Source of the DNA: Tubulanus polymorphus | Lineage: Eukaryota > Animalia > Nemertea | Reading direction: 5' to 3' | DNA length: 64,000 bases | NCBI RefSeq assembly: GCF_964204645.1 | Contig: NC_134027.1 | Span: 14,416,485 to 14,480,484, forward strand | Shown: one piece after another, positions 2,106 through 49,438 of the stretch | How positions within the stretch are numbered: position 1 is the stretch's first letter | Layout of the letters: each line of letters opens with the position of its first letter | The notes under the pieces: generated by a model | What the model saw: the letters and a program-made list of their open reading frames with translations, nothing else | Told to the model about the DNA's origin: nothing | Databases searched by the model: none | Made by a program: the position numbers and the translations under genes

Positions 2106-3305
2106 TAAAGATCTGCTCTGTCATGTTTTTCACGTCACTTGTCTTATTCATCCAAAATCATCGATATCATCTCCAAAACCAAAGGGACGTTGAACCAGTC
2201 CAACGTCTTTGAGAAATAGACACAGGCCCAATCCCAATGGTTTTGGTAACTTTTGGAGCCTACCAACTTGCCCCGGTATGGTATGTTAATTACTGGGAGT
2301 TTTTCAGACGGGATTGTCTAACTTGTTTTGAGGGATGCTCAGATCCAGGGTTTGAACCCCTTTTCTGACCAGCCCTTTTGAAAATCACACTACGAAAGAT
2401 TCCACCCTACAAATGATCGCAGCCTATGACAAGGTCTGCAGCTTAGTGGTGTCGCGCCTGCCCCGCTCAATGCGATTGGACACTTTTCACAACGATAAAA
2501 TGCCCTTGTCATATGAAGTGAACCCCCACCCCATTTTGCCCAGCCTGGATCTGCCCCTGGGATGCTTATATAGTCACATGTCACATTGCTTGGTTTTCAC
2601 AAGCATTTCTTACTAACTTGCTGGACGACAGATAGGAGATATTTATTTTTTGCTGGAAACTGCTCGTGAGAGTGTGTACATCTGTTATTGTGAAATATGC
2701 TGTCTGGGTGATCATGCACATTAATTTTTTTCTTAATTGAGTTAGCCCCCGGGTTAAAGTTAATACCACAGTCTATAAAACTGGGCCTGTGTGTGTATCA
2801 GTAATCATGGGCGTCGCTAGGGGGGATTCGGTAGTTAAAACGAACCCCCCTTTTTTAATTTTCAAACGTCGACGAACGTCAGCTCATGGTCTGCATTTGC
2901 TAAATTAGCAAAATAAAATCAATACAAGTAATTGGGAAAGTAGGCTTTCATACCAGAGGGCGAGAGGGCGAGACACCACTCATCACCACAAGTAATAATT
3001 CAATTGAGTATGAGACACCACTCATCACAGCTAGGCTCTAGAGAGAACGGACGATTGCTCTGTGGTACACATATACAGTGAGTGCGCGTAACAACAGCTG
3101 CGCGTGGATAGATCGATACAGTGAGTCTCTACTGAGAACGGTTATTAACGCGTGTGTTATTACTGTAGTACAGTGATTGCGTGTCAACTGTGCCCAGATA
3201 AATAGATGCTGTGAGGCTTGGGTGAGAACGGTTAATAGCGTGTTTGTTATATACAGGGAGAAGTAATCCCCACTCATCACCACAAGTAATTTGTTTTCCT
3301 TATAA

Positions 3306-3632
3306 ATGGGAGATAGAAAAGCATTCTTAGCAACAATAAATAACAGAATAAAACCGGCAAAAAAACAATTTGAAATAAAAAAGTTAGTTGATGTTACAAA
3401 AGAAATTGAACATAAAATATTGAAATTAGAAAAGATAAAAACTAAATATGGAGAGAAAGTATCAGCTAATTTAAGCTACTGTAATTTTAGTACATCGCGA
3501 GAATTTAAAGTATTTTTACCTGATAAATGGGTTTCATTGAGTACAGAGGAATTAAAAGATTTAGAAGGATTTAAAATAATCTATCATGGAAAAAATGAAG
3601 ATGGCCATCATGATTTAGAAATTGTTGATTAA
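3306..3632 (+). CDS. Small conserved element protein (possible OB-fold ssDNA-binding protein)
   Basis: Intact ORF after TAAATG in the TIR; homologous to 46034-46379 and 53424-53777 (YG.K, LPD, Y.GKNE.GHH). Confidence 0.7.
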   Translation: MGDRKAFLATINNRIKPAKKQFEIKKLVDVTKEIEHKILKLEKIKTKYGEKVSANLSYCNFSTSREFKVFLPDKWVSLSTEELKDLEGFKIIYHGKNEDGHHDLEIVD

Positions 3633-3765
3633 ATTTAAAAGAAATAAATTAATAAAAATAATGAATATCTAGAATCCGAAATGACTTATCTGGACAATTT
3701 AATTGCTCCGCATAGATAGACAAAAGTAGTGAGATATTCAATTAATATTCAATTAATTGAAAAAA

Positions 3766-4159
3766 TTATTTTTTTTGCTTTTTTTCTAAAATATAAATCC
3801 ATTTTTTATTATCAATTTTGGAATTTCGGAAGTATTTTCATTTTTGATAGCAGTTGTTTCAGAATTATAAATATCATGAATTTTATTTGATTTCTTATAC
3901 CAATTACACCAAATCAAAATGAATACAATTACAAATCCAACTGTAAAATATAGACATTTATCAAATATTCTATTATTAGAAGGAGTAGAAATAACAATAT
4001 TTTCACTATTTTTATTAACATTTTTATTACTTATATTTTCTTTTACAGCTTTTTATATTCTTGTGATTTAATTCCTAATTGCCGAGACCATTCAATTTGT
4101 TTCTGTGATCTCGGTTTTTTCTTCACAGTTAATTCCTTCAATTCTTCCACCTCGCTCAT
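3766..4159 (-). pseudogene. Basic N-terminus, single-TM protein, frameshifted
   Basis: Homolog of 45542-45925 and 62709-63077. Confidence 0.7.
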
Positions 4160-4182
4160 TTATTATAGAAATATTTTTACTT

Positions 4183-4696
4183 TCAATATTTGAAAATGTT
4201 ATAACCCCAGTTTATAATAATGGCATAAATCCACCTAATCGAAATGATAAATATCCAATCCATTTATTTAATTCTGTCATAACTAAATAATCATTTTTTA
4301 AATCGGAATATAATCTATTTTCATCTTGAATTGGCAGCATATAATTACATAATTTACTATAACCTTTTACTACATTTTCTGATATCGCGTCATTAATTCT
4401 AGCTGTTCTCGCGGTTCATAAATCTTAAATAATCTAATAATTTCATCTGATTTCATTGTATCTAATTCATTATAAGTTAAATTTTTACCGATAAAATTTT
4501 TACATTTTCCAGATGCTATTAATATTTCTAATTGATGTTTACAATAAAGATAATATTCATAATTATTATTTGTTGTAACATTATTTAAAGCACCATCATC
4601 TGGAATTAATTTGTTTTCTGTTATTCCTAAATCATCTAAAGTTTTTTCAATTGGAACATCACCATTTTTAGATTTTATTTTCTTTTCACCTACCAT
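4183..4696 (-). pseudogene. Conserved ~170-200-aa element protein, frameshifted
   Basis: Homolog of 45004-45518 and 63070-63672 (YEYYLYCKH.LE.LIA.GK). Confidence 0.75.
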
Positions 4697-4724
4697 TTAT
4701 ATAACAAAAAAATTATTTGTGATG

Positions 4725-5000
4725 TTGCAACTAGAATTCAACTAGAATGTAACTAGAATTCAACTAGATTAACAAGCTAGTTGAAATATTGTTGTTTTTG
4801 TTTATTTCTTGTTAAATCTAGTTGATTTTTGTCCCAACTACTAACAACTAGAATTCAACTAGAATGTAACTAGAATTAAACTAGATTAACAAGCTAGTTA
4901 AAATATTGTTAAATCTAGTTGATTTTTGTTCCAACTACCAATAACTAGAATTCAACTAGAATGTAACTAGAATTCAACTAGATTAACAAGCTAGTTGAAT
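4725..5000. repeat. CTAG-rich hairpin/iteron array (three ~115-120-bp units)
   Basis: Repeated AACTAGAATTC-type 10-11-mers with TTCAACTAG..CTAGTTGAA stems; also present at 44697-44975. Confidence 0.85.
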
Positions 5001-5609
5001 TTAAATAAATTCATATTTAAATGGGTGTTGTAATCTAAATAGTAATTTTGATCTTTTAATATTTTTCAACTTATCCATATATTCATTATGTAAATCATGT
5101 GGAATAATATCATTTTCCTCAAGCGCATTTTTCATCGATTTTCTATCTTTATTGTAGAATAAAACTAGAAATCTAATGTTTTCTCTAAAGTCTTTAACAA
5201 TTGAATTATATTTTTGATTTAAAACCCAAGTTGTTATCCCAAAATGTCTGCCAGAAAAAGCTAAATAGCATAACTCACTTTCTGTAACTTTTGAATCATG
5301 TAAATTTGCGCAATCATCTATGATAAATAATGTATTTGATCCTTTATGAATATCAATTGCTATTTTTATACAATTATCTAAATTTTCTTTCACTGTTTTA
5401 GGATCTAATATAATAAATTTATTATTTCTAGTAATATTTCTATCATAAGTTTGATTAAATTCATATGTTGGACAAAATAATACTATATTATCAAAATAGT
5501 TTTTATAAATAGTTTCTAATAAATCTAATATAAAATAAGTTTTTCCACAATTTATTACACCAGAAATTAACATATTATGAGGCTCAAATATAAATAATTA
5601 CTTATTCAT
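5001..5609 (-). pseudogene. A32/FtsK-like genome-packaging ATPase
   Basis: Walker A ISGVINCGKT, Walker B FIIDD, SGRH motif; early stop after MNK compared with copy 2. Confidence 0.88.
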
Positions 5610-6738
5610 TTATATATTTTTAATTTTACTTGATAATATCCATTCATTGAATTTATCTGGCCATCCAACCCATTTTACTAAAGAATATTTTTTTCTTTTA
5701 ATAGTTTTTGTTTTTAATACTTTTTCAATTTTATATTCTTGTTCTAGATTTTCAGTAGTTAAACTTAATTCTTCTTCGTAAAAGTAGCCATCAACTTCTT
5801 CACCATCTAAATCTTCTAATTTATAGACATATGGTTTTGTTGTTATTACCTTTTTTATTTTATATATTTCCCTAGTAAAATTTCGATCGTATCCTTTATC
5901 AAATATCTTTTTATACTTAGAAATTCTAACATTTTGACCAACTTTAAATTTAGGTTCACCAAAATCATCTACAAGAAATGCTCCATATAAATTATTCCAA
6001 ACAATTTCAGCATTTTCAGGTTTTCTAGCATCAATAGGTTTCATTCCAATAGAAGAATGATAAGAATTATTATATCCTTCTATCAATTTTGGTAAAACAT
6101 CAATCCATTTAAAAGTATTATTTGCTGTAAAATATTTCCACATTCTTGTTCTTAATGTTCTATTAAATCGTTCAACAACTGCTGCTTTTTTATCCGATTT
6201 TGTTGAAAAAGTATTCAATATTATGATTATCTAAGAGTTCATGAACAAGTGAATTATCAAACTCTTTTCCATCATCAAATTGTATTTTTTCTGGTTTTAG
6301 TTTATCATCCGAAAGAAATTTTCTTAAAACATTTGATGTTTGTGCAGTATCTTTTATATAAAGTGGGAAACTCCATACGTAACGACTAAAAATATCAATT
6401 ATATTCAATATCCACCAATAATCATCATTATCTTTCTTAACATTTTTCATATCAATTAAATCTCCTTGCCACTGTTGAACTACATAACTTACCATAGTTT
6501 TACGTGTTTTATATTTTCTAACAATTTTTTTATGTGTTGTGTATGTTGGTTGTTCTAACATAAATTCATTTATATCTTTATATTTAACTAAATTTTGTGG
6601 GATTATCTTATCTAATTTATCTTGTTTTACTTGACGCCATATATTTTTAGTAGAAGAATAAGCAACCGAACTCTCAGGGTTGTAATATAAATTTCTTAAA
6701 TATTGTTCTTTAGTATTAGGAGTTTTTTTACCACCCAT
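5610..6738 (-). pseudogene. rve DDE integrase with C-terminal chromo-like domain, frameshifted
   Basis: WQGDLID, IDIFSRY, QFDDGKEF, VVERFNRTL, KYSLVKWVGWPDKFNEW. Confidence 0.92.
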
Positions 6739-6768
6739 TTATATATCGTTAATTTTAACTTTATATTT

Positions 6769-8017
6769 CTAATATTGAATACTATCTAATTGTGAATTTA
6801 CAATATTTAATTGTGCGTCAGATATAATATAAATGTGGATTTTAAAATTTTTGTCTCCTCTTTTCTTTGCCATGAATAATTGTATTCCATCTTTTGTGTT
6901 CTGTAGTTTTATCCCAGAACCATGTAATGAATTATCCTCTGTTGTTCTAAAATCTAACTATAATGCATATTTATTGCCGGTATAATAATCAATTTGATTA
7001 ATATTACAATTTTCAAATGATTTTACTTTTTCATTCATGAAATGTTTTCTAATTTCTGGCCACTGATCTATCATTCTCATTCCTTGACAAAATATTTTAT
7101 TTGCTATTCCTTCGATAGTTATTTCTACTTTTGTTATTTCAGGATTATAATAATTATCTACCTTTATTGCACCATTAGAATATGTTGCAATGGTAAAAAA
7201 TATTAATATACCTTTAAATAGATCTTCTTGGGAAGTTAATATTCTCATTAATTATTTCATCATTTGCATTAATAGTTACAGTTTTAAATTTATCAATATA
7301 ATCATATAATAATGAAAATGCTTGATTGTATTGAGTTTGAATTGTGCTAGCAATATTTTCATTAGTTACTGTGTCATATTCTAAACATATATTTGATAAT
7401 TTATAACCCATATCTTTAACAACGCTAGATAATACAATTTCATTTACAGGAGCAAATGTTATTTCGAATATAACGTCTTCTTGAATTGCGTATTTATATA
7501 AAGGTGCATTATTATTTATTAATTCAAAGTCTAATGGAATTTTATATTTGCTTCCATAAATCTTTTTTATCAAATTATCTACAGCATTAGTTACTACTGC
7601 ATTATTGGCTTCAGATCTTAATTTATTATGGTTTTCCGATTGAATACCCTGAAATATCATATTATTTCTATTTTCTTTAGTTAACCATAAATCTTTATAA
7701 TGCATAAATAAATTATAATCATCTAATGAGAAAACTGTTTCTGGACCAATCTTTATAGTTAATTTTTTAATCAAATATCTCCCAACATTATCAACAACAT
7801 AATTATTATCATGACCAATTACTTTTATATCAGCTGATAAATAAATACTATTTGGAACATAAAAAGTATTTTGTGTTAATCTAGGAATTCTAACATATAA
7901 AGTTTCATCGGGATTAATATTTGAAGGATTATGTTTAATTATATGATGTGATCTTTCTGCTTTAATAGCATTAGATATTCTAGAAATCTTAGAAGGACTT
8001 ATATAACTCCCACTCAT
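6769..8017 (-). pseudogene. Major capsid protein (double jelly-roll, hexon-like), frameshifted
   Basis: ~415 codons, beta-rich (NPSNINPDETLYVRIPRL, YKDLWLT, IPLDFEL, NICLEYD); conserved in all three copies. Confidence 0.8.
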
Positions 8018-9498
8018 TTATTTAACAAAAAAATTAATTATTAATTTTTTATTATTTTTTTCTTGATATCTTTTTGATATCATATTCACTAACCCAAAAA
8101 TAATAGCACTTACAACTGTAATTAAAAATAAAATAATATGTTCAGCAGCAAAGTTAAGAATATTCCCAGCAGATTTCAATATCAAACCAACAATTGATGC
8201 AATAACTCCTGGCAATGCTGCAGCAGATTTTTTAGATAGTTCCCATAAATATTTTGCTAATTTCTTTAAACCATCTTTAACTTTATCTTGTATAGAATTA
8301 TTATCATTCGGGGGTTTATCCGGTTTATTTGGAGTAGGAGTAGATTTTAAAGCATTTGATATTGCTAAACCAATTGTTGTAAATAACATAGTTACAGCTG
8401 TTAGAATTGAAAGAATTGTGATACCTTCTAATTTAAATAATAATTTTATTCTATCTTTAAATGATATTTCAGAATTTGGTTTTATCAACAAATCTTTAAA
8501 AATAACTTTTAATCTATTAATATTATAATCATATGATTTTAATAATAATTTAATTTCTTCTTTCTGTACTTCTAAATTATCTTTAAAATTATTAATTTCT
8601 TTTTCTAAACGTAATTCTTTTGCCTATATTCTATTTCATCAATTACTTGATGATCTAAATCAGACTTAAATTGTTCTATTTCTTTATTATTATCAGTTAA
8701 TTCTTTTTCTAAAGTTCTAATTTTAAAATCTCTTATACTTTTATCATGCGCAATTTTATCAAATGCAAGTCTTATACTTTTAATTTTTCTAATTGCTTCA
8801 ACAGAAAATATATTATTTAAATCTTCTAATTGTTGATCTGTTGCATCAATTAATCCATTCGGTAAAAGTTTTTCAATTGGAACTTTATTTGATTTAAATT
8901 TACTAGTTTTGGAAGTTATATTCTGTTCAGAAGTTGTTTCTGTTTCTGATTTCTTTTTGATTATTTCAAATAATTCATTAATTCTTTGTTTAAATACGTC
9001 TATATTATCATCTATTTCTTTTTGTGTAACATCAGTTATTTCATTACTATTAATTATTATTTTAATTCTATCTGGTTTTAATTTTTTTAAAGTTGATTTT
9101 GCTATTATTTTTTTTTCTTTTTTATAAGTGATATCAATATAATAATCATCTTTCAAATGATAATAACATTTACCATTATCTAAAAATTTTAATTGATGTG
9201 CTAAAAGTCCAACGTCTTCATCATTTATATTAAGTTTAGAATTTTCAATTATACGTTCTAATTAAGGTATTTTGTTTAAATTATTAAAATTTAGTTTTAC
9301 TAAATCTGGGTCTAAATTTTCAGGATTTAATTGTGATTCTGCATTTTTAATATAATCAGGCATATTTAAATTATTATTATATTCTGGCTCATTACCGTCA
9401 TTAAAACTTGTTTCACTAAAATCAGGTTGTTGTTCATCAGTTATACCAGGTTCATCTAAAGGATCCATTCCAATATCTTCTCCACCTTCTACATCCAT
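8018..9498 (-). pseudogene. Large protein with acidic N-terminus, variable coiled-coil centre and multi-TM C-terminus (broken into 3 ORFs)
   Basis: Ends match 57419-59047 (MDPLDEPGITDEQQPDFSETS; LFKLEGITILSILTAV..AALPG). Confidence 0.7.
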
Positions 9499-9514
9499 TT
9501 ATATAATAAAAAAA

Positions 9515-10903
9515 TTAAAATTTAAAACATAATATTCCTCCTATAACAATTCCTATACAAGTTAAAGCTAATTTAGTATTTTCATGGAATTTATTATCAT
9601 TATCAGTTTTAATTATATCATGTTGAATATTATCAGTTTTTATATTTTCTGATGTATTGTAATCTTTTATTTTAGAATCATTATGCAATTTAATATTTTT
9701 AGTTTTAGTTTCTGTTGATTGAATATGTTTTTTATTTTTTTCACCTTCCATTAATTTTGGAGCAGTAATAATCTTTTTATTTATATCATTTAATCCAAAT
9801 GAATTATTTATTGTTGCAGTTTTGATTAGATTATTGTAACCAATTATGTTTCCCATCTTTAATACTAAATCATTAGAAATAATAAATAGATTAGGGCCTA
9901 TACAATAATTTAATCTAATATGTGATTTATCTAAATAATTTTGATATCTTACAATGTTTTCTGGAATCGATCTATTTTTATCATTATGAATAGAATCTTC
10001 AAATAATACTTTGAATTGTTTCTGTGTATCAAATCATGTATTTAAATTTCCAATTATTGGGGATCTTGTTTCAACTTGCGCACCTAAAATACATATCAAA
10101 TAAGTTCTAATAGATTGATTTATTCTTTGTATACCTGATTTTGTAAAACCTTCATTATTTTCTAAAATGAAATAAACCCAACCATTATTGTTTTCTTGTT
10201 TTAAATTCTCATAAAATGTCGGTAATGTATTGAAATTTAATGTTTCTAAATCCTTAAATTCTATTTTACCATAACCTAATTTATTACTATAGATATTATA
10301 AAAACTATTAGATTGTATGGGAAGTGCACAATATTCTGCAATCTTTTTAGGGCAAGGAAGTGATCTTATTGTTCCAATTTTTGTTCTAAAATCAGAATTA
10401 TTTATATCTATATTAAATTCATTACAAATTTTATAAAACTTTGATAAATTAATATTATTATCTAATCCTTTAAAATACCTAGATCCTGGTAAAGCGCACT
10501 CTAATTCATTTAATATTATTCTGATTTAAAATTATGTATGAAATCTAAATAAACTTTGAATTAATTTATATTTAGAATTATTCAAATGATCATTCCAACT
10601 AATTCCACAACCTGTTGTTGCACAATAAACAGCAAAATTTAATTGGTTCTGCCAATACTTCATATTAGATTTTAATGACCATTGTTTTTCATCTTTCAAT
10701 TTTTTAAAATTAATTTAATATACATGAAATATATTTTCCATCTTTGCATTAAAATTATTAGTTTCAGTAACATAAATTTCTAAATTGGTTAATGAATCTA
10801 AAACTTCATTTCCATATGTAATATCTTTATTAAAATCTATTGCTGGAATATTATATTTAATTGATTTATTATATTGGAAAGCTTTTGGAAAACTATCTAC
10901 CAT
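9515..10903 (-). pseudogene. ~440-aa element protein with C-terminal TM, disrupted
   Basis: Homolog of intact 56081-57403. Confidence 0.8.
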
Positions 10904-11354
10904 TTATTTAATTAAACAATTAATAATTTATTAATTCTTTTAATTATTTATCTTGTTCTTCAACTGTTATATGACCATTTAAACTTATTATATAATCTAG
11001 TGTATTCTTCAATTTATTAATTTCTTTTATATTAGTTTTAATTTTTTCTTTATTACTTTTTATATTTTATTTTGAACTTATACCAGTTAAATCACTTGAA
11101 CTTAATCCTAATACACCAATTGATATAGCTAAAGGTATTAATGGACTGAATATTGCTAGAAATGTTATTACAGAACTAATTGTAACCGAACCACTGATAA
11201 TAAGATAAAATATAATTTTACTTTTTAAATATTTTTTCTTTTTTATCTTTAAGTCACTTTCAAATTCTAATATTTGTTTTTCTAAATATGTTTTTAATTT
11301 AGTTTTATGTATATCATGAGGAATAATATCAATATTATCAACTTTATCTTCCAT
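10904..11354 (-). pseudogene. Two-TM small protein
   Basis: Homolog of 55631-56080. Confidence 0.7.
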
Positions 11355-11375
11355 TTATTTAGAAAAAAAAAATTA

Positions 11376-11798
11376 CTAATTTGTAAACTTATAAGCAACA
11401 AACATAACAATAACTGTTCCACCTAAAATCCAAATTATTTCATATTTCTGTTGTTCATTACTTGGGGTATAATAATCTGATAATTTAGGTTTGTATAGAT
11501 GTAATTTTTCTTTATTTGTTACTGCGTTATATAAACTTATTGCATCATCAACCGATTCAAAATCTCTATGTGAAATCTTCTGATCATATAATTCTTTATT
11601 GATGTAATCCATATAGTTTTGTCGTTTTTCTCTATATTCTTCCGCTGCTTTATTGTATTTCTCTAATGCTAAGTTATGTCTTCTTTGTTCTCCTAATGAA
11701 CTATTTTTATCAATATGCTTAAATAAATAACCGCCACCAGTAAATGCTAAAGCGTTAACAATTGCCGATCCTATAATAGTTATAATTGCAGAAGCCAT
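11376..11798 (-). CDS. 140-aa protein with N- and C-terminal hydrophobic segments
   Basis: Intact; near-identical to 55188-55610. Confidence 0.8.
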   Translation of the reverse strand: MASAIITIIGSAIVNALAFTGGGYLFKHIDKNSSLGEQRRHNLALEKYNKAAEEYREKRQNYMDYINKELYDQKISHRDFESVDDAISLYNAVTNKEKLHLYKPKLSDYYTPSNEQQKYEIIWILGGTVIVMFVAYKFTN

Positions 11799-11822
11799 TT
11801 ATTTAGCAAAAAAATTATGCAT

Positions 11823-12044
11823 TCATATGGGAGGAATATATTTTTGTTTTTCTAAATAATCAATAGTTAAATTAGATAAAGTAAATTCTAATGTTAATTT
11901 TAAGATATCATTTATATCAAATCTATCAACATTAACACTTCCCATTTTAAATACTTTTTTTAATACCATTGAATAACCAACAGTTCCAACTGATAGTAAT
12001 GCGCCATTATATAATCCAGTTATTATCCACTTATTATCACTCAT
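11823..12044 (-). CDS. 73-aa hydrophobic protein
   Basis: Intact; near-identical to 54942-55163. Confidence 0.8.
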   Translation of the reverse strand: MSDNKWIITGLYNGALLSVGTVGYSMVLKKVFKMGSVNVDRFDINDILKLTLEFTLSNLTIDYLEKQKYIPPI

Positions 12045-12399
12045 TTATTTATCAAAAAAATTACTATCATCAAAATATTTAGTTATCTTAGTGATGATTA
12101 ATTCAACATTTATTTCATTACTAGTTTCATTTGTATATATTTCAATTATTATTTTTTTAATATCATCGATGATAAAATCTTCATCTTATTCATAAAATCT
12201 TAAAGATTCTCTAATTAAATTAGTAATTTTCTACATTAAAAGTTTCTTTATGTATTGTTTTTTCATACTCAAATGTTGTTTCATTAGAAAATGCAATATT
12301 TTTGATATGTGTAATTACATCATTAATGTTAAATTTCATTTCTTTCTCACGTTTGAAATCAAATCCAAAACATATACTCGGTCCAACAGTTATATTCAT
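12045..12399 (-). pseudogene. 118-aa element protein, disrupted
   Basis: DNA homolog of 54585-54941. Confidence 0.7.
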
Positions 12400-12415
12400 T
12401 TATATAATGAAAAAA

Positions 12416-13170
12416 TTACTCTTTACATCTTATAACTAATTCATAAATTACAGGAAAGTTATTCAAATCAATTAAGTATCCATTGTGATTTCTAATTTCT
12501 AATCTAAAATTATTAAAATGTGGAATACAAGGTTTGAAATCACATTCAGTTAAATTATAATTTATTTGAGTTCCAAATTGTTTAACATTTTTAATGGTAA
12601 AATATTTAGTATACTAGAATTGCAAGTTTTATCTTAAGTTGCTTCGAATGTTTTTGTAGGATCAATTAAATTACAATAAATATAGAAGTGCGTAAAAGGT
12701 ATTATATTTGGCGTAGTATCAACATTTGAATAAACTTTATTTGGATTAACTCCTAGCATTTTAGCTAATGGTTTTCTTACTATGAATTTATATTGTTCAT
12801 TAGTTAACTTTATTCTTATTTTATTAGTACTATCAATTTTATTAAATTTAATGTTAAACCCATTAGATTCACCCACTTTTAACCGAGCTCTTCTATTAAT
12901 TTCTTGAGATAATGTTTCTAAATTATATAATCCTGGTCTTAGAAATAGATGATACCATTTACCCATATTTTTATCATGAATCATAAACAATCTATGATCA
13001 AAACTTTTATCCGATATATTGTAAAAAGAATTACATAAACTTATATTAACTAATTTTAAATCAACACAATTCTTAAATTCTCTATCTAATTGTATTAGTA
13101 AATTATGAGATTTATAATTTGTAAGTTTTCTAGAATCAACAAATATTCTGTATTCTTTTAATTCTACCAT
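12416..13170 (-). pseudogene. Minor capsid protein (penton-like single jelly-roll)
   Basis: NSFYNI..PGLY..FYIYCNLI..IDLNNFP motifs; homolog at 53813-54568. Confidence 0.7.
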
Positions 13171-13238
13171 TATTTATAACATAAAAAAATTACCGCTCAT
13201 CACTAAAAATTAATTTTAATAAAATTTTTCCTTAATAA

Positions 13239-14571
13239 ATGGATGAGAAGATAGCATGTGAAATTTGTGGTGAACTTCTAAGAAAAAGTAATATGGCTCG
13301 ACACATGAAAAAACATGATGAAAATTATAAACCCCCTAAACTAAACTGCCCAAATCGTAATAAATTATTCTCAAGAAATTATGTTAAAAAACATTCAGAG
13401 AAGTGTAAAATTAATGGCGCAACGGCTAATGTTGATAGTAATGAAAGTAATAGTAATTCTGTTGAAGTTGAACCTGAAATTATTTGGAAAAGACCTTTCT
13501 TATTCTATGACAAGGATAATATAAAAGATCATTTCTGCGAGCCTTGTCGAATAAAATATAACCCTGAAAATATAGAAGATTGGGAGAATCATCAATTTCG
13601 TAAAGTACATATAGATGAAATTTCTAATAAATTTGAAACTGAATTCAATGAAAGAAAAAATAGTTTATTAGAAAAAATAAAATATGAGAAAACGTTACCA
13701 GATAATAAAGAAACAGTTGAAAAGTTCAAAAAAACAATATAATGAATCAACAAGAAAAACATATTATTGTAAATATTGTAAATTGATTATTACAACAAGT
13801 AATTCAAATCTACATAATAGAACAATAAAACATAAAGAAAACGTAAGAAAATACCAGGAGCTTAATGAAGATCTATTACCAATAAATTATAAACGAAAAT
13901 GTCCACAATGTAGTTATGCGACCTTAAGACAAGAAGGTACTGTGTTATTTTGTGTTGATTGTGGATGGCAAAAGAATTTATGGGGTGAAGAAAAAACTAG
14001 AAATTTTCTCATAGATCCAAAATTAAATTATCTAGATGAAATTTTTAAAATATTTTCTATAGAAGATCATACACCAGAATATATGCAATGGCTTGAAAAA
14101 ATGAAAATAATAGAAAATAAAAATGGTGAAATAACTAAAAAAGATATTATAAAAACAATTATTCCGTCAACATTTAACACAAAACAAAAGAAAATGTATT
14201 TATATTTATTATTTAACGATTATTATGAAAAACCTAAATTAACAGAAGAAGATATGGAAAATATAAAAAAAATATTCAAACAAATATTAATGTATCATTT
14301 GGAAAATAGAATAACAGATTCAATTAATTATGAATTCTTTTTAAATAAGATTGTAAATTATTTAAACATCGATATTATAATTCCATTTGACGAATTAACA
14401 AACAAAAAGAAACAATGAGAGCGAGATGAAATGTGGAACAAGATAGAACTTTATTTAAATGAGAAAAATGAAATGGAAGAAGAACCTAAACAAATTATAC
14501 AAGAACAATTAAATGAAAATGAAGAAGCCAATAGTGATTTCGAGTATGATGATATTGATGTTATGTTTTAA
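13239..14571 (+). pseudogene. Multi-Zn-finger protein fused to a poxvirus VLTF-3 (A2L)-like domain (one frameshift near 13740, one stop at 14416)
   Basis: C2H2-type fingers, then CPQC-x13-CVDC, NF...KL..L and IFKQILMYHLEN..SINYEFFLNKI..W; frame continues past the TGA to a TAA at 14569-14571. Confidence 0.65.
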
Positions 14572-15023
14572 TGGCCATAAGGTAATGTTTTTATACCATC
14601 ATCTGAAATATGTCTTTGATCATCAAATGGATTTAAACTAGTTTTTTTAACTTCATTAATGTACATCTCATGATCTTCTGATCTTAAACAATTCATTTTA
14701 TGTTTCATTACAATTGAGTAATATAAACACTTTATATAATCTTGAAATTCTATGTGTTTATCAGCCACATGTTTTGTTATTCCTTTTACCTTTTTAGCTT
14801 CATGATCTTTTGTTCTATAACTATACATTTTACTTCTTATCCCAACAAATTCAATCATTTCATCACCCCCTAGTTCATCTTTAAATTTACCAGGAATCTT
14901 TTTATTATCATTGCTAAATAGTTCATGATCTTTGGGATAATTGCTAAAATCAAAATGATGTTTTAATGTTTTTAAGTCTTTTGTTATGTCATTTGTCTTG
15001 ATTTTTAGTATGTGGGCGTCAGT

Positions 15024-16083
15024 ATTTTTGGCTATTAATGGAAATCCACAGTTAAATGTATCATCTTCAGTTGATAAATCATAAACATAATCTGTTGGGT
15101 TATATATTTCAAATAAATCTTTAACTTCTTCTGTTAACTCATTTTCTACATGGCTTAAATTAAAGCAATTTGGTTTAGATATAATCAATCCAATATTCAT
15201 ATTAAAACCTAATGAATTGCATAATATATTCAATCCTGATATAGCAACTTTTCCTTTTTGAGCTAAAGATATTGTTTTGCGATTTTTGAAACTTTTAGTA
15301 CCATCTGCTGCGTAGAATCCAATGAAGAACCATTTTCTTAAATTATTTTTTACATTTAATACATAATCTGGAACTATCTTTTCTTTAGTTGAAGTATTAC
15401 TTTTCACTATTGTATGAATATAGAATTCGCCATTATATTTTATAGCAAAATCTTTAGGATTATTCACATGTATTCTATAACATTGCGATAATTTCATAAC
15501 ATCTATGATTTTGAATGTTTTATGTGAATAAACTTCTTCACAGAATTTCTTTATTCTTTCTAATAATTTCAAATCTTGATTGCATAAATACCAGCAATAT
15601 TGAGTGCGATTAACATAATTATACACACCTGCTGAACCATCACCCATGAAAAATCCTTTGATAAATTATTCTTTTTCTTCTAATGTTTCGGGTTCTATAT
15701 TATAAATATTATCAATTATTTCATCAAATGACATAGGATTCATTCTTTGGAAAAATCTTTTATGTAATAATTCATCTCCAATTCTTATATCAGTTGGTTT
15801 TATTTCATCACCATTTCGTTTAATTAAACTATGATCTTCTGTAACATCTACAAATCCTAATTTAGTTCTAACTCTATAGATTTTCTTATTTGTTTTATGT
15901 CTAATAATATTCTCTTTTCCATCCATTTCTTGTCCAAACATCCATTAATCCATTTATTTGTATTAATTCTTTTTCACCATATGAAATATAACATTCATTT
16001 TGTTTTGGAATTATTTCTGAAATTCTTCTTATCAATATTTTATCATTACATTTTAATAATATTGGGGTGTCAGCTGTTACAGA
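15024..16083 (-). mobile_element. Intein with LAGLIDADG homing endonuclease in pPolB motif C
   Basis: YFD|SVTADTPILL (block A), VDVTEDHSL (block B), FIKGFFMGDG and FFIGFYAADG (LAGLIDADG), YVYDLSTE (block F), LIAKN|TD (block G, +1 Thr); 1060 nt with one frameshift and one stop. Confidence 0.93.
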
Positions 16084-16658
16084 ATCAAAATATAATATTT
16101 CAATATGCTTTTCCCCAATAAGTGGTTGTAAAACATTATAATAAAAATCATACATTAATAATTTTGATACTTCTAAAACAGTTGAACCAATAAATATAGG
16201 TTTATTAAATTTCATTGACGTTCTTTTTAATTTAACTGCTGTTAAATAATCTTCAAATCTTTTATTTCCTAAATGTCTAGGACTTGATTGTAAATGTCTT
16301 AATCTTTCAGAATTATTTACTAATTCAATATCATTTCTATTTCTAATATTTTAACATGTTTTACCATAAAAACTGTTATTCATTAATTTGAATAAATCTT
16401 TTTCAAAATCTGTTTTTGATATTGTTCTCTGTTGAGTATTAAAATCTATATATTTTTCTAACCACTTCGATTGATTAAATTCAATATATCTATGTACTTT
16501 CTTTAATTTCATTCCTTGTTTTAGATACAATTTTAACATTCTGTAATGAACAATATAATTGTATTTATTATTTTGAGTAAGTATTAATTTTTCTGTAAAA
16601 ACATGATCTTTCGGTTTTATTTTCTTTTGGTATTCACTTAAATAACTATCATCTACAC

Positions 16659-17706
16659 TTAAATGTTCTGGGCAATAAGGTAAGTTTCTTGTTTTAAACT
16701 TTATATTTTCAGGATATTCTAAATCAACTACAAAGAAATGACCAATTGGTGCTTCATCTTTTAAACTCGCAATTGCGCTTTCCCAATCAGTTTTATCACC
16801 ATTTTCAACTTCTGTTAATATAAAATTTTTATATGGTTGAGGTTGCATCATTGCCTAACCATATAAATTATTGGCGTCAATATATAATAATTTATATTCA
16901 TCATTTGCTTTAAAATACCTTTACTTCTTATCCCAACAAATTCAATCATTTCATCACCCCCTAGTTCATCTTTAAATTTACCAGGAATCTTTTTATTATC
17001 ATTGCTAAATAGTTCATGATCTTTGGGATAATTGCTAAAATCAAAATGATGTTTTAATGTTTTTAAGTCTTTTGTTATGTCATTTGTCTTGATTTTTAGT
17101 ATGTGGGCGTCAGTATTTTTGGCTATTAATGGAAATCCACAGTTAAATGTATCATCTTCAGTTGATAAATCATAAACATAATCTGTTGGGTTATATATTT
17201 CAAATAAATCTTTAACTTCTTCTGTTAACTCATTTTCTACATGGCTTAAATTAAAGCAATTTGGTTTAGATTTAATCAATCCAATATTCATATTAAAACC
17301 TAACGAATTGCATAATATATTCAATCCTGATATAGCAACTTTTCCTTTTTGAGCTAAAGATATTGTTTTGCGATTTTTGAAACTTTTAGTACCATCTGCT
17401 GCGTAGAATCCAATGAAGAACCATTTTCTTAAATTATTTTTTATCTGCAGTTAAATGTTCTGGGCAATAAGGTAAGTTTCTTGTTTTAAACTTTATATTT
17501 TCAGGATATTCTAAATCAACTACAAAGAAATAACCAATTGGTGCTTCATCTTTTAAACTCGCAATTGCGCTTTCCCAATCAGTTTTATCACCATTTTCAA
17601 CTTCTGTTAATATAAAATTTTTATATGGTTGCATCATTGCCCAACCATATAAATTATTGGCGTCAATATATAATAATTTATATTCATCATTTGCTTTAAA
17701 ATACCT
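16659..17706. repeat. Internal segmental duplications in pPolB
   Basis: 16920-17443 duplicates 14829-15352; 17451-17706 duplicates 16659-16920. Confidence 0.85.
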
Positions 17707-17986
17707 ATCTCCCATAACACCACTAATTCCACCTCTAATTGTTTTTTCAAATAATAAAACCATATCTGGTTCTTTTAATAAATCTAATTCTACATTTGTA
17801 TATTTTAAACCACATTGCCAGGTTAAACCAGGACTAGAGTAGCAATAACAAGGATCAACATAATTCCCTTCTTTCTAAGTATATTACTTCATGCCTTGCC
17901 AAACGCTAATTATTTACTCACTCACCAATTTACTCAATTAACCTGTCCTCCTCTGTATATTTACCCCTGTTTTTAGTCTATTTCTC

Positions 17987-27950: not shown

Positions 27951-29631
27951 GCACTTTGGCCCAGTCTTACTATAGAGTCTTTTTCATTGCTGTTGCCTGA
28001 TAATGATAAACTGATTTAGAACTCATTGCACGTACTAGGGGAAGCAGATTTTTGGAAGTTTGTAAAATATAGGGAGGGGTTGAAAATTGGTAAATTCTTT
28101 AATAATTGTACATAAAATGTAACTAGAGCTACACTAGCAGTACCCCTGAAATATTGAAATATGAAGGCTCTACAAATATAGCTGTGGCGGCTATCTTGGA
28201 TAATCTACACGAATAAAAACAATGTAGCACATCTGGCCCAAGTCGGATATAGCATAGCATAGTGCCTTGGCGTAGAGTTAATAAGTTGTGCGGTTAATGT
28301 ATCAGCGCATTAATACATTGGCGCATGAATACATTGATAATTGGGTATTAATGCGAAACAAAGGAACAGTTCATGTACAGGTTGACCGACGACTAGTGAC
28401 AGTTGACTACTGTTGGTTGTTTGTTGGTTGGCCCATTGAAGAGATGACGGATGACACGATGCAATGTTGTCGCCAATTTATGTGCATAGACCTATATCAT
28501 CCGCTGGTTGACGGTCGACGGACAACACGTTGCAATGTTGTCGCCAATGTAAGTACAGGCATCGTGGGTTGACTGGTTGACGGGTGACCACAAAACACAA
28601 ACAAACAAGAGAAGTAAATCTAAACCGAAACAGTAAACTATAAGCATCAGCTGCGAAAGTTTCATTTTTGATTTTGAAAAAAAAGAGCCGGCACGTATCG
28701 ATGTCGTTCTGTAGCAATGTGAACAATGCCATATTTCACCGTCCCCACGTTTGTTTTTGGGAGGCGCATCTCACGATGACAGGGATGAACATAAATAATG
28801 AATCTCCTGTGAATTTGAATGCTTAACCGTGTTGAAACTAATATCAGAGAACTGGAATTGACTAAAGAAAAATAGAAATGCAATTTGTATTTTAAGTATG
28901 CGGTTTATCATGTGTTTGGTCACGTGGTGTGTTTGGTGTATGAGTTTAATAGATCGTTAATAGTTAATTTGTTGGTTGGTAGATACGTCGACACGTTGAC
29001 ACATGGAATGTTAATGGCTGGCGATGTGAATGTGTCGACATTACAACTTTCTTTGGGATACACATAAACCGAACAACGCAGTAAGCATACCCGAAGGAAC
29101 TATACTATGCAATACCCTACTTGAGCCGCACATCTTCCATCCATTATTCACCTACCATGTAATCAGAAAATTGGTTCAAATCAGAAGTAGACTTTAGAGC
29201 AGGAGCATTCTCTTCCTGACAGATGGCAATACCCTTAAGCCAGCAATGTTTATTGAATACACAATGTGTATAAATGGAAGATAAAAGCATTTCAAGCTTT
29301 ATTTCCACACTGGATGAAAGAATGCAGATTTAACAAGTACTTACATTCACCAAAACACGGTGTCCAGGTTCATACTGGGAACAAGGGTATCTATTCTTAG
29401 TCCCTTGACCATTGCAGCATTATATACAGTTGAAAGTGCTTCAGCTGCTTTTCGCTTTGAAGCGGATTCATTCTCCCAGGCAGTGAGCTTGAAATTTCAA
29501 AGTACAAAAGTTTGATGTGTTATATTACACATCATCAATATGTATTATTACTAGTCATATCTCGACCCGAAAGGGTGTAAGCAGTACAATAAAGAGTTTA
29601 TTGAATTGAATTGAATTGAATATCTGAAGTA

Positions 29632-30109: not shown

Positions 30110-31660
30110 CACATTTGAAGAAGCCACATCTGAAGTATTTTCTTCATCTACGGAGTCTGCTTTCGTCATCTGACCATTTTGAAGGCTTTCACCTTGATTG
30201 TGCTTCCTGGCAAAAAATACTTCGAAAGGAGTCATCTTATCGGCTGAAAAAGATAATTAGTATTTTATTTTCATAGCAGATGAATTGATAGGAAAAGCCT
30301 ATGGTTAAACCAGACATACGTAACGAATACCCTTCGGCCAGTGAGTGAGTCATGTTCAGATCACAAAATTGTAATAGGGTACATATTCCTGACAAGTTTC
30401 ATACACATACAAAAATCACTAAAAAGTGTAGATTGTAGAGCAAGAACGAGGTCCATAATGCCTATTTCACATCACCCTGCCCAGATGGAGACAGGTGATG
30501 ACAATACCACATGAAGCTTATTGCCAAGGGGTATATCTATCTTTGGACCCCTAAAATTTGAAAAGGTACAATACACCCGGTTCCAGCGAGGTAGAAGGTG
30601 TAGTATCTTCTATAATGCAAATTTGCAGTTTAGAAATAACAGAGGAGTAGGGCTATTATTATCATAGCTAGGATAACAATAAGGTTTCTAACAAAGGTAG
30701 GCAGAATACCCTAATTACATACACAATGCTTTATGTGATCGTTGATTCATAATTCTCTGGAGCTCAGGAATATGCGCAACCCAATTTGTCTCATCATCTC
30801 TCCCGAGTAGGTACCGAAGCATCTTCTTCCAGCTCCTATGTGATCTTTCGGACTGTAAAGAACGGTAAAAACATTGTTAAATTTGTAATACAAAAACTAC
30901 TTCCCAATTTTTTCAATCAAAATATAATCATTACTTTTCCTTGTGATTGGGGATGCCTAGGCGAACCAAATATATGCTTTATTTTTGCAGTCTTCAAAAA
31001 TGAATCAAACTCTCCTTTGAATTCCGTTCCATTATCGGTCTGTACGTATTGCGGGTTGCCGAACTCACAGAATATATTTTTTGTCACTTCGGCCACCGTT
31101 TTCGATGTTTTGTTCTGAATTGGGCGTAACCAAAGGAACCTACTAAATACGTCAATCACACTACACACATATCTGTACGTAGATCCTTCGTTCTCAACTT
31201 CTTCCATTAGTACTAAATCTATTTGTACCCGGCTCATCGGAGCAGATGCTGTTATATTCTTAATAAGTGGCTTGTTCGTAAATAATGGATTCCGTATCGT
31301 TTATCTTCGAATTAAGATGATCTTGGATAGTTTGCTTTGATATACCATGGAAACTGCTGCTGATTGCTCCTACTAATTTGGACGAACCTGATCCAGCCAT
31401 GTTCGTGTGGTACTGATCAATAATTGAGGCAATGGCTGAAGATTTTGGAACAATTTTTCTCGTTTTTTCGAATACAATTTCATTTTTGTTGTTTACGTTT
31501 TGACATATGTAAGCTTTTGAAGACAACTTATTCGCTGCATTTTGCGCACAGCATCATATTTTTTGTCACCGGAAGTAACTGGATATGATGAGAGCATCTT
31601 CTTTCCACTTAGGACAGAAAGCATGATCTCATACACATCGTCGCTGAGAGCTGATGGTCC
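30110..31660 (-). pseudogene. Intron-containing DDE integrase/transposase (Ginger-like)
   Basis: RVQIDL, IDVFSRFLWL, QTDNGTEF, PRHPQSQGK|SERSH; GT-AG introns 30853-30934 and 30244-30722 restore ..HKAL|SDKMTPFEVFFARK. Confidence 0.8.
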
Positions 31661-33722: not shown

Positions 33723-36700
33723 AGTAGTGATATCACTACGCACGAAATAGACCAAGAGCGCGCGCCTAATAGAACGCGAATGGAATAGTTAAACAGGAAG
33801 ATTGATACTCCTGGAGATAAAATGTTATCGATATACGCGATAAAAATGCCAAAAGAATAAGTTTGAAAGGTTCAAAGCGGAATTTGAAAATCAAACCCGA
33901 GTTTGATATTCGCGCGCAATAATAGTGAGCCGCCTAGCGGTGCGACAAGGCTCAACTCGCGAGCGAGGAACCGATGAAAACAAATCAAACTACGGAAATA
34001 TGATGAAAGTGGGATTATGACATCACAAAACGGCAGTTCAAAATTGAAAAGCGAATACAAAGTAATAGACTACCGGAAAGTAACCAGAACGTTATAGCGC
34101 GAATTTATGATAAAAGCCGAATAAAAAGATGTGATCGTGCTATTTCCCGACAGAAACCGACCAAAACCCCCAACCCGAACGCGATAGGCCCTACACCGTA
34201 ACGAGATGCCCGAGAAATTGACAGTAGTACACAGATACAAATTTACACAATATAAAACATATTTATATATATGAAATCGCTCCACCTGGAGATATCGGAG
34301 GAAAGGATGAGATGTAACGAAAACGAACCGGAGATGTTAAACACGGTCCATTTTCGCCACACAAACTAGGGGTCCAAAGAATACCCATCACAAATTGCAA
34401 TGAGAAATGGCAAACCAGTAAGAAGCTACAGGACTCAGAATTTGGGCCAAAATTGACATTTTTGGGCACTAAAAAGGTCATAGGACTGCCAACTTGAGTC
34501 CGATCGACCCAATTTTTCTTATGGTGATGGGCCAAACTTTAAACAATGATTAATTGAAAATCTTTTTCTACAAAACTTCTAAAACTCATAGGTTCAAAAC
34601 TTGTTAAACCTCTAAATTTTCCCATACAAATTTCGATATGAAAAGTGTATTAATTCCCCAAATCATCTATTTGAATCTTAACTAAGATCAGCAATTTATC
34701 ATTCCTCCGTTGACATAGGTTGAGTTAACTACCGGTAAATTAGATTTACAGCAAATTATCACAAATATACATAATCACTGTCTGATTCAGACGTTTATAT
34801 ATAGAAATTAAGCTCAGTACCACATACGTCAAAAGTTGGTTCAAAACCCAATGAGGTACAATTCAAGAATAAAAAATAAATTATTTCTACTTACAGTTTG
34901 AGGCATTTCTGATGTATTAACCTGCAATATATGAATTCAAAGACATTTAAAAAAAGGCTGAGCAATACATAAAAAAACTGTAGTCATGTCAACCTGTGCT
35001 CCAAGTTTTGCACAATAATTGCGAATCAAAACCTCTATAATAAATGATATATCTTATAGGCCTAGAAATAATGATAAGAAAATTTCTAACACTTCACAAA
35101 TCAAATGTGGGCTAAAGATAGGCCTATACTATAGGCCTACATGATAATACAAATTTGACAGCCTTGTAGGCAAGGTCTTTTGATTAAACTGATGTGATTG
35201 ATTAAACTGATAGGAATCTTCTGTACGTGCTAAAGTCAAGATAACGTACGGATGGAACTTGTCAATATTAAACTAGGGGTCCAGGGACACCATGGGATGT
35301 GGTTTAAAATGCTCAACAATCAGAATACTCCAATATTCAATGTCCCCTGGTGACCATATACTAAAAACCAATCAAATGTGATGAGGGTTTGGTTAATTGT
35401 TGAGGGGTAAACCCTGCAGGTGCTTGTTAAATTAAGGACTAATCGGACCACAGGTAAAGCCACCAGGAGTTACAATTTTGCAATTGATTGCGGTTATTGA
35501 TACATATATCCGTGTATCAATATGAATAAGCAAATTGTACTTACAGAGTAATTTTTTTTTTTCGTAAAAACAAACATACGGCTCGCCTCCTTGAAAGATT
35601 GGAGCTCTCATACTGGAAACCTGACTAAATATATATCATTATATATCAATATTATATACCATTATATATCAATAGATTTAATTGATGACAGGTTTTGGAA
35701 TACATTTGTACTAACATGAACTGTATTAGAATTCAACGACCAAAATCATACTTTGATCATAAATTAGCTTTCATTTCATTATTGATTTGCTAAACTTACA
35801 TTATCATCATCGGCAAGAGCCCAACCATTAAGAACTTTCAGATACGCAACATAGTGCCCACTGGTTACTTCGACATCTCGATGACAGCATATAACTTATA
35901 AACATACTGAAATCACACATACAAAAAACATGATGACTGATCCTTGACACAAGATTTACTTTGATCAAAGCACTTCAAATGATCATGATAATAAAATACG
36001 CTATTGAGTAATACTGATTATAATGATTAATAGTGTCAGGAGTTAAAACGTAAGGGTTTAAATTGAACTCAATATCGCAGAATTAAAATCAAAATACTAA
36101 CACTGTTCCTTAATAGGCAGTCCTGCTTGGAACAGGATATTAGAACCACAAAGTTTTCTTCAGATTAACATCTTATGGGATGGATCATTCCATGAAAATA
36201 TACCTCACTAGGAAAAAATTTCCCCTAGAGCATGCCACAATGTCATGCAAGCCATTAACATTGTTTTAAACAACTTCCAAGTGAAATAGTAGAAGATTAC
36301 CTGATCATTTCCAACAAGAATATCTAAATTCTTTCCAATGTTTACGTGGTGCATGAGTTTCCCTGCATTGCCGAAACAACGATATCTATATGAAATCCAT
36401 TAGAAGTATTTCAATTAGAAAGTTCATGATATATATTATCATTATATTTCCATTATAGATATTATCAAATCTACGATGTGAAACAGCTAAAAAATACAAA
36501 TAACATGGCTAACCTTTTCAAATCAATGACAATGAAATCAGGTGCATTCACAAGTTCTTGAAAGCGAAAAGCTTGTTCACACGGACACCTGTTGATGGAT
36601 TAAGTGGGGACATCTATTATATCTGATGATATTTACCGGTAGGCTATACATATACGGTGCACACAACCAAACTTATAGTTGTTAATACTATAAGAATAAC

Positions 36701-37200: not shown

Positions 37201-38175
37201 TGTTATTTTACTAAAAAAACTTGCAGTGAACCAAACCCGCGATATACCACCTCCTGCCACACCCACTAAAGCCCAATTTTTCACATAATCAGAATATCCG
37301 TATATCTTGGAACTGGTCAAAATTAATTCCAAGTCACCGATATGAGCTGTTTGAATCTATCAGGGGTCGACACGGTTCATCTTCCATGGTTGTATACAAT
37401 CAAACAACGGTGTAGCAATTTCTAATACTAGCATATAATATATTCTTAATATTCACCTCGATGCCACAAGACATATTCAAGACATATTCAAATGTTCCGA
37501 CTGACGTATGCTCTCTTTTCCACATTCCAGGCAAGTGTCTGCAAATGGATAGCTACATCATTACAAAATTGATTAGGAAAATATCAGCAATTTTTTGTAA
37601 AAAGTCACATCGACCTACCTGTTGTTTTCAGCACAAATTCAAAACAAAGCGGCATTCTGCAAATAAATACACAAGTGAAGCTAGAGAGAACAAAAGTGAA
37701 AACTGAAAATATAGTACGCTAGGTGACAGCAAATACAGAATAGATTGATCACAAAATATACCAGTATGAAAAAGTAAAATATGGAAATCATACCCATACC
37801 TCTTAGGGTAAAAAGTTGACTAGGGGTCCATAGGGATACCATGCCCACTTGGAAGGTGGTTTGAAATAATAATAATAATGGGCCAAGAGGTTTACCACAG
37901 CCTTATGAAATGCTTATATCAGATAACGAAACAGGGATGCAATTAAAGGTACGAGTAGATTCGGTCTTGATTAGAAAAATGAACTGAACCACGATACAGT
38001 GCCAGCACCAGTCGGCCATCTTGATTCTGACCAGGCCGGTCTGAGGTCAAAGGACACCGCGCCATCTGAACTGGTCAACAATCTTACAATAGTAATAGGG
38101 AAAGTGGGCTTTCATACCAGATTACGAGAGTACGAGACACCACTCATCACCACAAGTAATTTTTTTTCCTTATAA

Positions 38176-40436: not shown

Positions 40437-40797
40437 AGGAATAACAATTCTTTCAATTCTAACAGCTGTAAATATGTTATTTACAACAATTGGTTTAGCA
40501 ATATCAAATGCTTTAAAATCTACTCCTACTCCCAATAAACCGGATAAACCCCCGAATGATAATAATTCTATACAAGATAAAGTTAAAGATGGTTTAAAAA
40601 AATTAGCAAAATATTTATGGGAACTATCTAAAAATTCTGCTGCAGCTTTACCAGGAATTATTGCATCAATTGTTGGTTTTATATTGAAATCTGCTGGGAA
40701 TATTCTTAACTTTGCTGCTGAACATATTATTTTATTTTTAATTACAGTTGTAAGTGCTATTATTTTTGGGTTAGTAAAAATAATCAAAAATAAATAA
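40437..40797 (+). pseudogene. C-terminal remnant of the multi-TM protein
   Basis: Fused to pPolB at the deletion junction; matches 8018-8430. Confidence 0.85.
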
Positions 40798-40817
40798 TTA
40801 ATTTTTTTGTTAAATAA

Positions 40818-42933: not shown

Positions 42934-42963
42934 AAATATAAAGTTAAAATTAACGATATATAA

Positions 42964-44698: not shown

Positions 44699-44975
44699 AT
44701 TCAACTAGCTTGTTAATCTAGTTGAATTCTAGTTACATTCTAGTTGAATTCTAGTTATTGGTATTTGAAACAAAAATCAAATAAAATTCAACAATATTTT
44801 AACTAGCTTGTTAATCTAGTTGATTTTTAGTTACATTCTAGTTAAATTCTACTTATTGGTAGTTGGAACAAAACTTAACTAGATTTAACAAGAAATAAAT
44901 AAAAACAATAATAATTCAACTAGTTTGTTAATCTAGTTGATTTTTAGTTACATTCTAGTTAAATTCTAGTTGCAA
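44697..44975. repeat. CTAG-rich hairpin/iteron array
   Basis: Reverse-complement homolog of 4725-5000. Confidence 0.85.
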
Positions 44976-45003
44976 CATCACAACTAATTTTTTTGTTATA
45001 TAA

Positions 45004-45518: not shown

Positions 45519-45541
45519 AAGTAAAGATTTTTCTATAATAA

Positions 45542-49420: not shown

Positions 49421-49438
49421 CTTAAAATAATCATATAC

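Follow-up and report, generated by a model that had tools for sequence, protein, structure and literature searches.

Polintons carry no RNA polymerase, which raises the questions of how their genes are transcribed and whether animal Polintons depend on a helper virus. Here, we describe a 64,000-nucleotide stretch of the genome of the nemertean Tubulanus polymorphus (contig NC_134027.1, positions 14,416,485 to 14,480,484), which we call the window and whose first letter is position 1. Between 2927 and 17860 lies a truncated and decayed Polinton/Maverick, an AT-rich island (GC 21-29%) within repeat-rich eukaryotic DNA. Nearly all of its genes share a start motif resembling that of vaccinia late promoters, and its DNA polymerase (PolB) carries an intein allelic to those of giant-virus polymerases. 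The features of the element are listed below (aa, amino acids; ORF, open reading frame; profile matches are to Pfam).

2927..3305: terminal inverted-repeat region ending in a putative T-block/TAAATG promoter; it matches the sibling terminus at 38091 (90%) and, colinearly, 46674-42201 (94%)
3306..3632, plus strand: gene of 108 aa with a 117-aa paralogue at 53424 (29% identity by tblastn, E=2e-10)
3760..4696, minus strand: two broken genes (starts 4696 and 4159), both TAAATG; homologous stretches at 45004-45925 and 62709-63672
4700..5000, minus strand: three 97-117-nt repeats right after the ATPase stop, CTAG-centred imperfect palindromes (families D16/D17); folding z=-5.75
5001..5609, minus strand: packaging ATPase of the A32-like type, disrupted close to the 5' end (PF04665, E=2.5e-10); the sister ORF 44093-44698 is unbroken
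5610..6738, minus strand: retroviral-type integrase with chromodomain, in two pieces (rve, PF00665, E=1.9e-9; chromo, PF00385, E=9e-5)
6769..8017, minus strand: major capsid protein, in pieces (Capsid_N, weak, E=0.002); 72% identity to the 415-aa ORF of locus L002
8018..9498, minus strand: long gene, broken, whose acidic/coiled product ends in a hydrophobic C-terminus, from ORF pieces and sister pieces
9515..10903, minus strand: broken copy of a 440-aa gene, 76% identity to 56081-57403; no Pfam family
11067..12399, minus strand: four small genes (starts 11354, 11798, 12044 and 12399), each with a putative T-block/TAAATG promoter
12414..13170, minus strand: candidate minor capsid gene (DUF5901 only, E=0.019), the sole start reading TAAATAATG (at 13170); module exchange at 13171
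13239..14570, plus strand: zinc-finger and VLTF3-like gene with breaks near 13730 and at 14416 and one TAAATG start, at 13239
14568..17860, minus strand: Beta-type protein-primed PolB, 3' part (5' part missing), with internal duplications at 16920-17443 and 17428-17706; 67-79% identity to PolB pieces at 51599-53394
15024..16083, minus strand: LAGLIDADG intein in PolB motif C (YFD/S...KN/TDA), here carrying a single frameshift and a single stop

The element is a Polinton/Maverick, with integrase, A32 ATPase, capsid, PolB and a terminal repeat. Its terminus (AGTAAT at 2927) recurs at both ends of a sibling copy at 38091-46711. The left arm is absent, as the element breaks off inside PolB at about 17860; frameshifts and stops disrupt most of its genes, and two internal duplications are present. 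Gaps at six measured gene junctions span 0-24 nt, and comparison with sister copies, judged from DNA alone, gives no hint of introns. Among 22 ORFs of this copy, whose left arm is missing, Pfam recognises no RNA polymerase family. It also recognises no adenain-like protease among the same ORFs, in a truncated copy and with a scan that likewise missed the protease-like N-terminus of L116, where that domain appears by eye to be fused to the integrase. An earlier sequence-only reading of this DNA had described a Polinton-like element of intronless, tightly packed, AT-rich genes with TAAATG starts, a VLTF-3-like gene and a PolB intein but no RNA polymerase. That inventory proved accurate, with the VLTF3 likeness residing in the C-terminal part of the protein.

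Several assignments are less direct. The class of PolB rests on its Polinton context; its motif C and palm match those of the sibling PolB and of L114 and L116, and Pfam finds no PF03175 match. The gene at 12414..13170 is presumably a minor capsid protein, and we infer that the pieces within 13239..14570 form one gene. A single-strand DNA-binding protein is only a lead for the 108-aa gene, whose nearest named Atlas cluster is Phi29 SSB (score 0.85, 44% of members). The capsid ORF of L002 has 241 homologues at E<=1e-5. Scans of viral contigs with capsid, integrase and P0010 returned no locus, a phage collection yielded no capsid match, and an Rfam scan gave 0 matches.

Three siblings, 71-95% alike, lie in the window at 38091-46711, 49260-61000 and 61660-64000. 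The first retains both termini, each with the T-block/TAAATG promoter inside the repeat, and a 5-of-6 target duplication; it is internally deleted, and its capsid gene bears an insertion of ~850 bp (41345-42201). The left end of the second (49260-49420) forms a small hairpin, in which the terminal sequence recurs inverted ~130 nt on, just before the PolB frame. Read depth suggests roughly 120-185 related copies: 124-185 for structural genes, but about 40 for the arm with VLTF3 and the intein (about 40-46 for the VLTF3-like gene). These numbers are rough, as a 90% identity threshold is set beside a 95% threshold; the depth baseline is the median (5.5) of 17 hand-picked low-depth host bins of 30, from one DNA run. 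Read sets X1 and X2 behave as DNA, with coverage that extends over non-coding parts of the host genome. At 13171, 330 reads depart to join the junction seen at 53813, in the sibling without VLTF3. At the minor-capsid start (13171, 53813), the same structural module connects to two or more different replication arms, which either have both VLTF3 and the intein or lack the two.

Start motif and upstream block

ATAAATG marks 13 of 14 curated starts and 9 of 567 other ATGs, the exception being the start at 13170, and the shorter TAAATG marks 13/14 and 29/567, respectively. For four of the 14 curated starts, the choice drew on the TAAATG list and on sister copies. A mechanical first-ATG caller places ATAAATG at 9 of 22 starts versus 13 of 559 other ATGs (p=1e-8), and at 4/13 and 10/23 starts in siblings. 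The full layout is TAA, a T-block, about 6 nt, and ATAAATG ending on the start codon, with a rigid upstream block: counted from TAAAT, T-A-A occupies -16..-14 and T fills -13..-7. A T at -10 of TAAAT is present at 11 of 13 starts and at 9 of 29 non-start TAAATG sites, and a leave-one-out matrix of the 16 upstream bases alone discriminates starts from non-starts (p=2e-7). Conserved columns are confined to -19..-4 of the ATG, where 9 of 16 lie above the 99% null, compared to 1 of 71 beyond -19. Scanning the window with a degenerate pattern produced 2 matches and told us nothing further.

In vaccinia late promoters, TAAAT is mostly followed by the G of the start codon, the tenth base upstream is a T, and a T-rich core lies 5-7 bp off (PMC11980589, PMC5294985). 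Judged against this published consensus, the spacing of the motif matches. A TAAAT initiator leads to 5' poly(A) slippage (PMC6211774, PMC7163114). The motif precedes the capsid, ATPase, integrase and VLTF3-like genes, as well as the PolB-side frame of the first sibling (38176), where it lies inside the terminal repeat. Since PolB-side and VLTF3-like genes share it, no separate early class is visible. The motif is retained in L002 (72% capsid identity). In L116, a Polinton with 38% GC, another gene order and 40% PolB palm identity, TAAATG stands at 7 of 7 long ORFs, with 11 TAAATG among 328 ATGs, on both strands and across wide gaps. A vaccinia-late-like start motif before every gene class, recurring in a distant Polinton, makes the helper question directly testable. 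In L116:1-9034, TAAG stands a few bases ahead of some starts, which we take to resemble the baculovirus late motif.

The same motif could serve an autonomous nuclear element, in which host RNA polymerase II reads it together with the VLTF3-like protein or an unrecognised factor. Many germline insertions and the target duplication of the sibling are consistent with such an element, which we consider possible though on the unlikely side. Neither a TATA box nor any other conserved element lies beyond -19: TATAWAW occurs at 0 of 13 starts at -60..-25 and nowhere within the 85 nt from the sibling terminus to the sibling PolB-side ATG. Also at odds with host transcription are the T found three bases before the ATG (-3) at 13 of 14 starts and the motif shared by VLTF3-like and PolB-side genes, which leaves no early class to launch a cascade. 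No TBP or cyclin-fold TFIIB family was recognised among the scanned ORFs, where very divergent members would escape.

Alternatively, the motif may be a compaction device rather than a promoter, in which an upstream stop, a U-rich element and AATAAA overlap the next ATG, or in which translation is coupled on long mRNAs. AATAAA indeed overlaps 7 of 13 starts. Several upstream genes end at or close to the TAA ahead of the T-block, and the integrase gene stops directly against the ATPase start. However, 6 of 13 starts carry TATAAA, and the same motif and spacing are found at 3306, 13239 and 38176 with nothing co-oriented upstream. The TAA of the motif is the abutting upstream stop at 1 of 6 measured junctions, and compaction fits poorly with the strands and gaps of L116. 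AATAAA is also not depleted inside 12.8 kb of coding DNA (58 observed versus 54.7 +/- 4.3), which would suit transcription by a helper virus as well. We regard a compaction device as quite improbable.

The VLTF3-like gene is recognised through its C-terminal 156 aa (X at the internal stop), which match PF04947 at 26.3 bits (E=6.9e-6, cut-off 25); Pfam scans of the 244-aa ORF and of the 295-aa read-through missed the family. For the protein, 27 of 30 Atlas matches fall in the VLTF3 set, with a recognition value under the tool threshold, and identity to a giant-virus VLTF3 is 21% over 193 columns (E=0.009). Word-based homologue searches and a PDB search with the protein gave no match, and its single-sequence fold (predicted local distance difference test score of 43) was uninformative. 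The gene occurs once in the window, is absent from sibling 49260-61000, and is present in about a third of copies by read depth, a proportion that sits uneasily with a general role in reading the motif for host polymerase. VLTF3 in Polintons has been published before (PMC11131425, PMC8502044). The sequence-only reading counted the gene among its signs of a poxvirus-like viral factory, a location that VLTF3 does not prove: mriyaviruses lack an RNA polymerase, carry VLTF2/3 and are proposed to be nuclear (PMC11253617), so VLTF3 does not locate transcription. The same viruses lend plausibility to RNA polymerase II.

The polymerase intein

An insertion of 1,060 nt (15024-16083) separates Asp and Thr of PolB motif C, a site we take to be Pol-c. 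The empty allele is also present, as the sibling PolB aligns up to and from the insertion residue without the insert. The insertion is in frame at a conserved motif and has Ser1, TxxH, a terminal Asn and a +1 Thr, with Lys rather than His as the penultimate residue. By these sequence hallmarks, it is a canonical LAGLIDADG intein, broken in the copy at 2927-17860. Profile matches are to PF14890 and PF14528 (weak) and to PI-PkoII (E=1e-4). Read depth over the intein is similar to that over the exteins, indicating that most copies of the element's PolB type carry it. This places a canonical homing intein in many copies within a eukaryotic chromosome.

Among the best 150 of 1,475 matches, 137 have the same junction motif and 47 the K-N end, and 28 of 31 scanned relatives are PF00136 polymerases. 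Only one of the best 150, P0002, matches the Polinton extein (74%). Allelic inteins occupy many loci in giant-virus bins, mostly in RNA-primed polymerases, and share the YxD/S...N/TD site, the TEDH and VYDL motifs and two LAGLIDADG-type motifs with the intein described here, which differs in residing in a protein-primed Polinton polymerase inside a eukaryotic chromosome. Intein homing requires donor and target DNA together, and an intein common to protein-primed Polinton and RNA-primed giant-virus polymerases records transfer between two virus phyla. Homing-nuclease insertions of other nuclease types in protein-primed PolB have been discussed as possible intein traces (Krupovic et al., PMC11071308).

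The two intein-host polymerases that we scored reach 358 and 593 bits to Pol delta, while vaccinia E9 reaches 76 bits with the first and is not among the best 60 matches listed for the second. Because both are Pol delta-like, the intein lends no support to a pox-like helper. In a quick tree of 46 chosen rows (four of them fragments), without bootstrap, the window intein groups with P0002 and three short fragments, sister to P0011 (Shimodaira-Hasegawa-like approximate likelihood ratio test, 96). The P0011 polymerase is strongly Pol delta-like with a C-terminal Cys cluster, and polymerases with such clusters occur in nucleus-replicating viruses and cells. A sister intein in a Pol delta-like enzyme is a further point for transcription by host RNA polymerase II. 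The three fragments that group with the window intein (P0016, P0092 and P0137) lie on contigs of 89-239 kb and are possibly further intein-bearing Polintons.

The intein relatives are only ~30-43% identical, indicating that the capture is old. This age would suit a relic, whose promoters, VLTF3-like gene and intein were inherited from a helper-dependent ancestor while the family spread as a transposon without a helper. Every copy in the window is broken, and the more distant sibling has a weak upstream block, as a relic would lead one to expect. The start motif, however, is kept across copies that differ by 5-28% in DNA, as well as in L002 and L116, which implies selection on the motif; we give a relic very little credence.

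Proposed helper dependence and known systems

We put at about even (roughly 0.5) the probability that the element is a virophage-like Polinton that relied for transcription on the RNA polymerase of a large DNA virus (Nucleocytoviricota) infecting alongside it. The uniform late-type motif, its vaccinia-like spacing, the lack of TATA boxes and the allelic intein make the dependence on large-virus transcription proposed by the sequence-only reading more likely, while the pox-like identity of its helper finds no support in the intein and is not demanded by the promoter. ATAAATG is also used by G001 (L102, L113 and L106), a non-pox giant-virus bin that encodes VLTF3 and an RNA polymerase of its own; its RPB2 scores 782 bits to Pol II versus 210 to vaccinia. 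ATAAATG stands at 12 of 30 starts in three stretches of G001, 5 of them with a TT pair, and the start signal is not specific to poxviruses. No PF00136 match was found in the G001 stretches scanned. A strict motif scan of viral contigs returned 20 loci, and only L102 has TAAATG at more than half of its starts. The exact T-block motif occurs in G001 at L102:4981-5002. We consider a poxvirus an unlikely helper.

Under helper dependence, the polymerase of the co-infecting virus would read the start motif, with transcription beginning within the AAA of TAAAT to yield leaderless or poly(A)-led mRNAs. The element would replicate by protein priming beside helper DNA, and an ancestor next to such DNA would have acquired the intein by homing. 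The VLTF3-like protein, found in part of the family only, would be an accessory that tunes or diverts the helper late machinery rather than a requirement, and the integrase would insert copies into the germline. A stronger version, which we hold to be doubtful, is that this animal Polinton lineage consists of true provirophages: about a hundred germline copies that stay inactive unless a cytoplasmic large DNA virus brings in its late transcription machinery, and that protect the host. If so, the TAAATG start would be a signature that tells, genome-wide, Polintons that depend on a helper from those that are nuclear, and the intein would be a fossil left by contact with giant-virus DNA in an animal lineage.

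A number of observations weigh against helper dependence. The case for it is drawn from genes and motifs, by-eye inspection of 26 stop-to-stop frames of at least 90 aa at 18000-38300 revealed no helper genes, and more than 100 insertions demand repeated nuclear access. The upstream block scores below 0 at 6 of 6 tested starts in the siblings at 53-64 kb, and likewise at 6 of 7 starts in L116. ATAAATG is found at 0 of 6 starts of L003 and L004, TAAATG at 0 of 12 in L115, and neither the PolB start at 49439 nor the gene at 53424 has TAAATG. The overlaps of the starts with AATAAA and TATAAA count here as well, and the AATAAA test was made without a nuclear-virus control. Depletion of TTTTTNT (7 versus 13.6) was rejected as evidence because A-runs are equally depleted. 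Viruses holding the allelic intein have ATAAATG at 57 of 882 starts; as they seldom use the motif, intein donor and promoter may indicate different helpers. The P0011 polymerase could be nuclear, so the intein attests contact with such DNA but does not place it in a compartment, and a larger quick tree (108 extractable inteins, fragments left out, also without bootstrap) gives the window intein a different sister. VLTF3 in presumably nuclear mriyaviruses and the scarcity of 3' hairpins add to these points.

The 3' hairpin array of the sequence-only reading is present at 4690-5010, after the ATPase stop (folding z=-5.75 and -8.0), but not as a general 3' rule: hairpins with z below -2 occur at 2 of 16 gene ends, both of ATPase genes. 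Hairpin arrays of unrelated sequence follow the ATPase of the 61660 sibling (61260-61660) and the L002 capsid gene (L002:1511-1625). The array may be a block terminator or an origin/enhancer. In Sputnik and Mimivirus, a hairpin stands at most 3' ends. Mavirus and Sputnik are described as placing all genes under a late-type motif and are not known to have an RNA polymerase of their own, and Mavirus encodes PolB and rve. The element resembles them in its late-type motif on nearly all genes and its lack of a recognised RNA polymerase, and resembles Mavirus in PolB and rve; it differs in its motif, that of CroV being TCTA (PMC5294985), and in having most gene ends without a hairpin.

Among other known systems, vaccinia late promoters and the yeast pGKL TAAAN initiator share TAAAT(G) on the start codon, the T at -10 and the T-rich core 5-7 bp upstream (PMC11980589, PMC5294985, PMC6211774), and both encode their own RNA polymerase, unlike the element as far as its ORFs were scanned. 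Polintons and adintoviruses with Beta-class PolB have the same terminal repeats, ~6-bp target duplication (here in the sibling), rve, A32, capsid and PolB without PF03175 (PMC8502044; 10.64898/2026.06.19.733378); the element differs in having no recognised protease, a uniform late-type start motif and a canonical intein. Coral polintoviruses also have a VLTF3 homologue, interpreted there as exchange with giant viruses; that paper makes no mention of "promoter" or "intein" and draws no helper link (PMC11131425). Polinton-like viruses (PLVs) found in entomopoxvirus occlusion bodies (AHEV_PLV1/2 and CBEV_PLV1) belong to the same Maverick-related capsid lineage and are proposed hyperparasites of an animal large DNA virus (PMC11296320), a precedent that counts in favour of helper dependence. 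They were co-sequenced with the helper and encode a protease but no rve, whereas the window element is known from its DNA alone; "transcription," "TAAAT," "VLTF" and "intein" have 0 mentions in that paper. Within the literature searched, with supplements and most subscription papers outside its scope, we found no published description of a TAAATG-start motif or an intein in Polintons.

Other repeats in the window

The DNA around the element holds further repeats. Microsatellites and sparsely placed genes, together with arthropod-rich Atlas clusters, fit a probable animal origin of the window. A GC-rich 148-bp tandem array spans 47981-49262 and has a partial inverted copy at 35373-35470. Transposon-like protein fragments, labelled by eye, lie at 28492-28770 (a zinc-ribbon transposase piece) and 30917-31553 (an integrase piece). 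A 195-bp inverted repeat, 99% identical between 1-194 and 2718-2912, stops 15 bp short of the element terminus and probably belongs to another DNA transposon.

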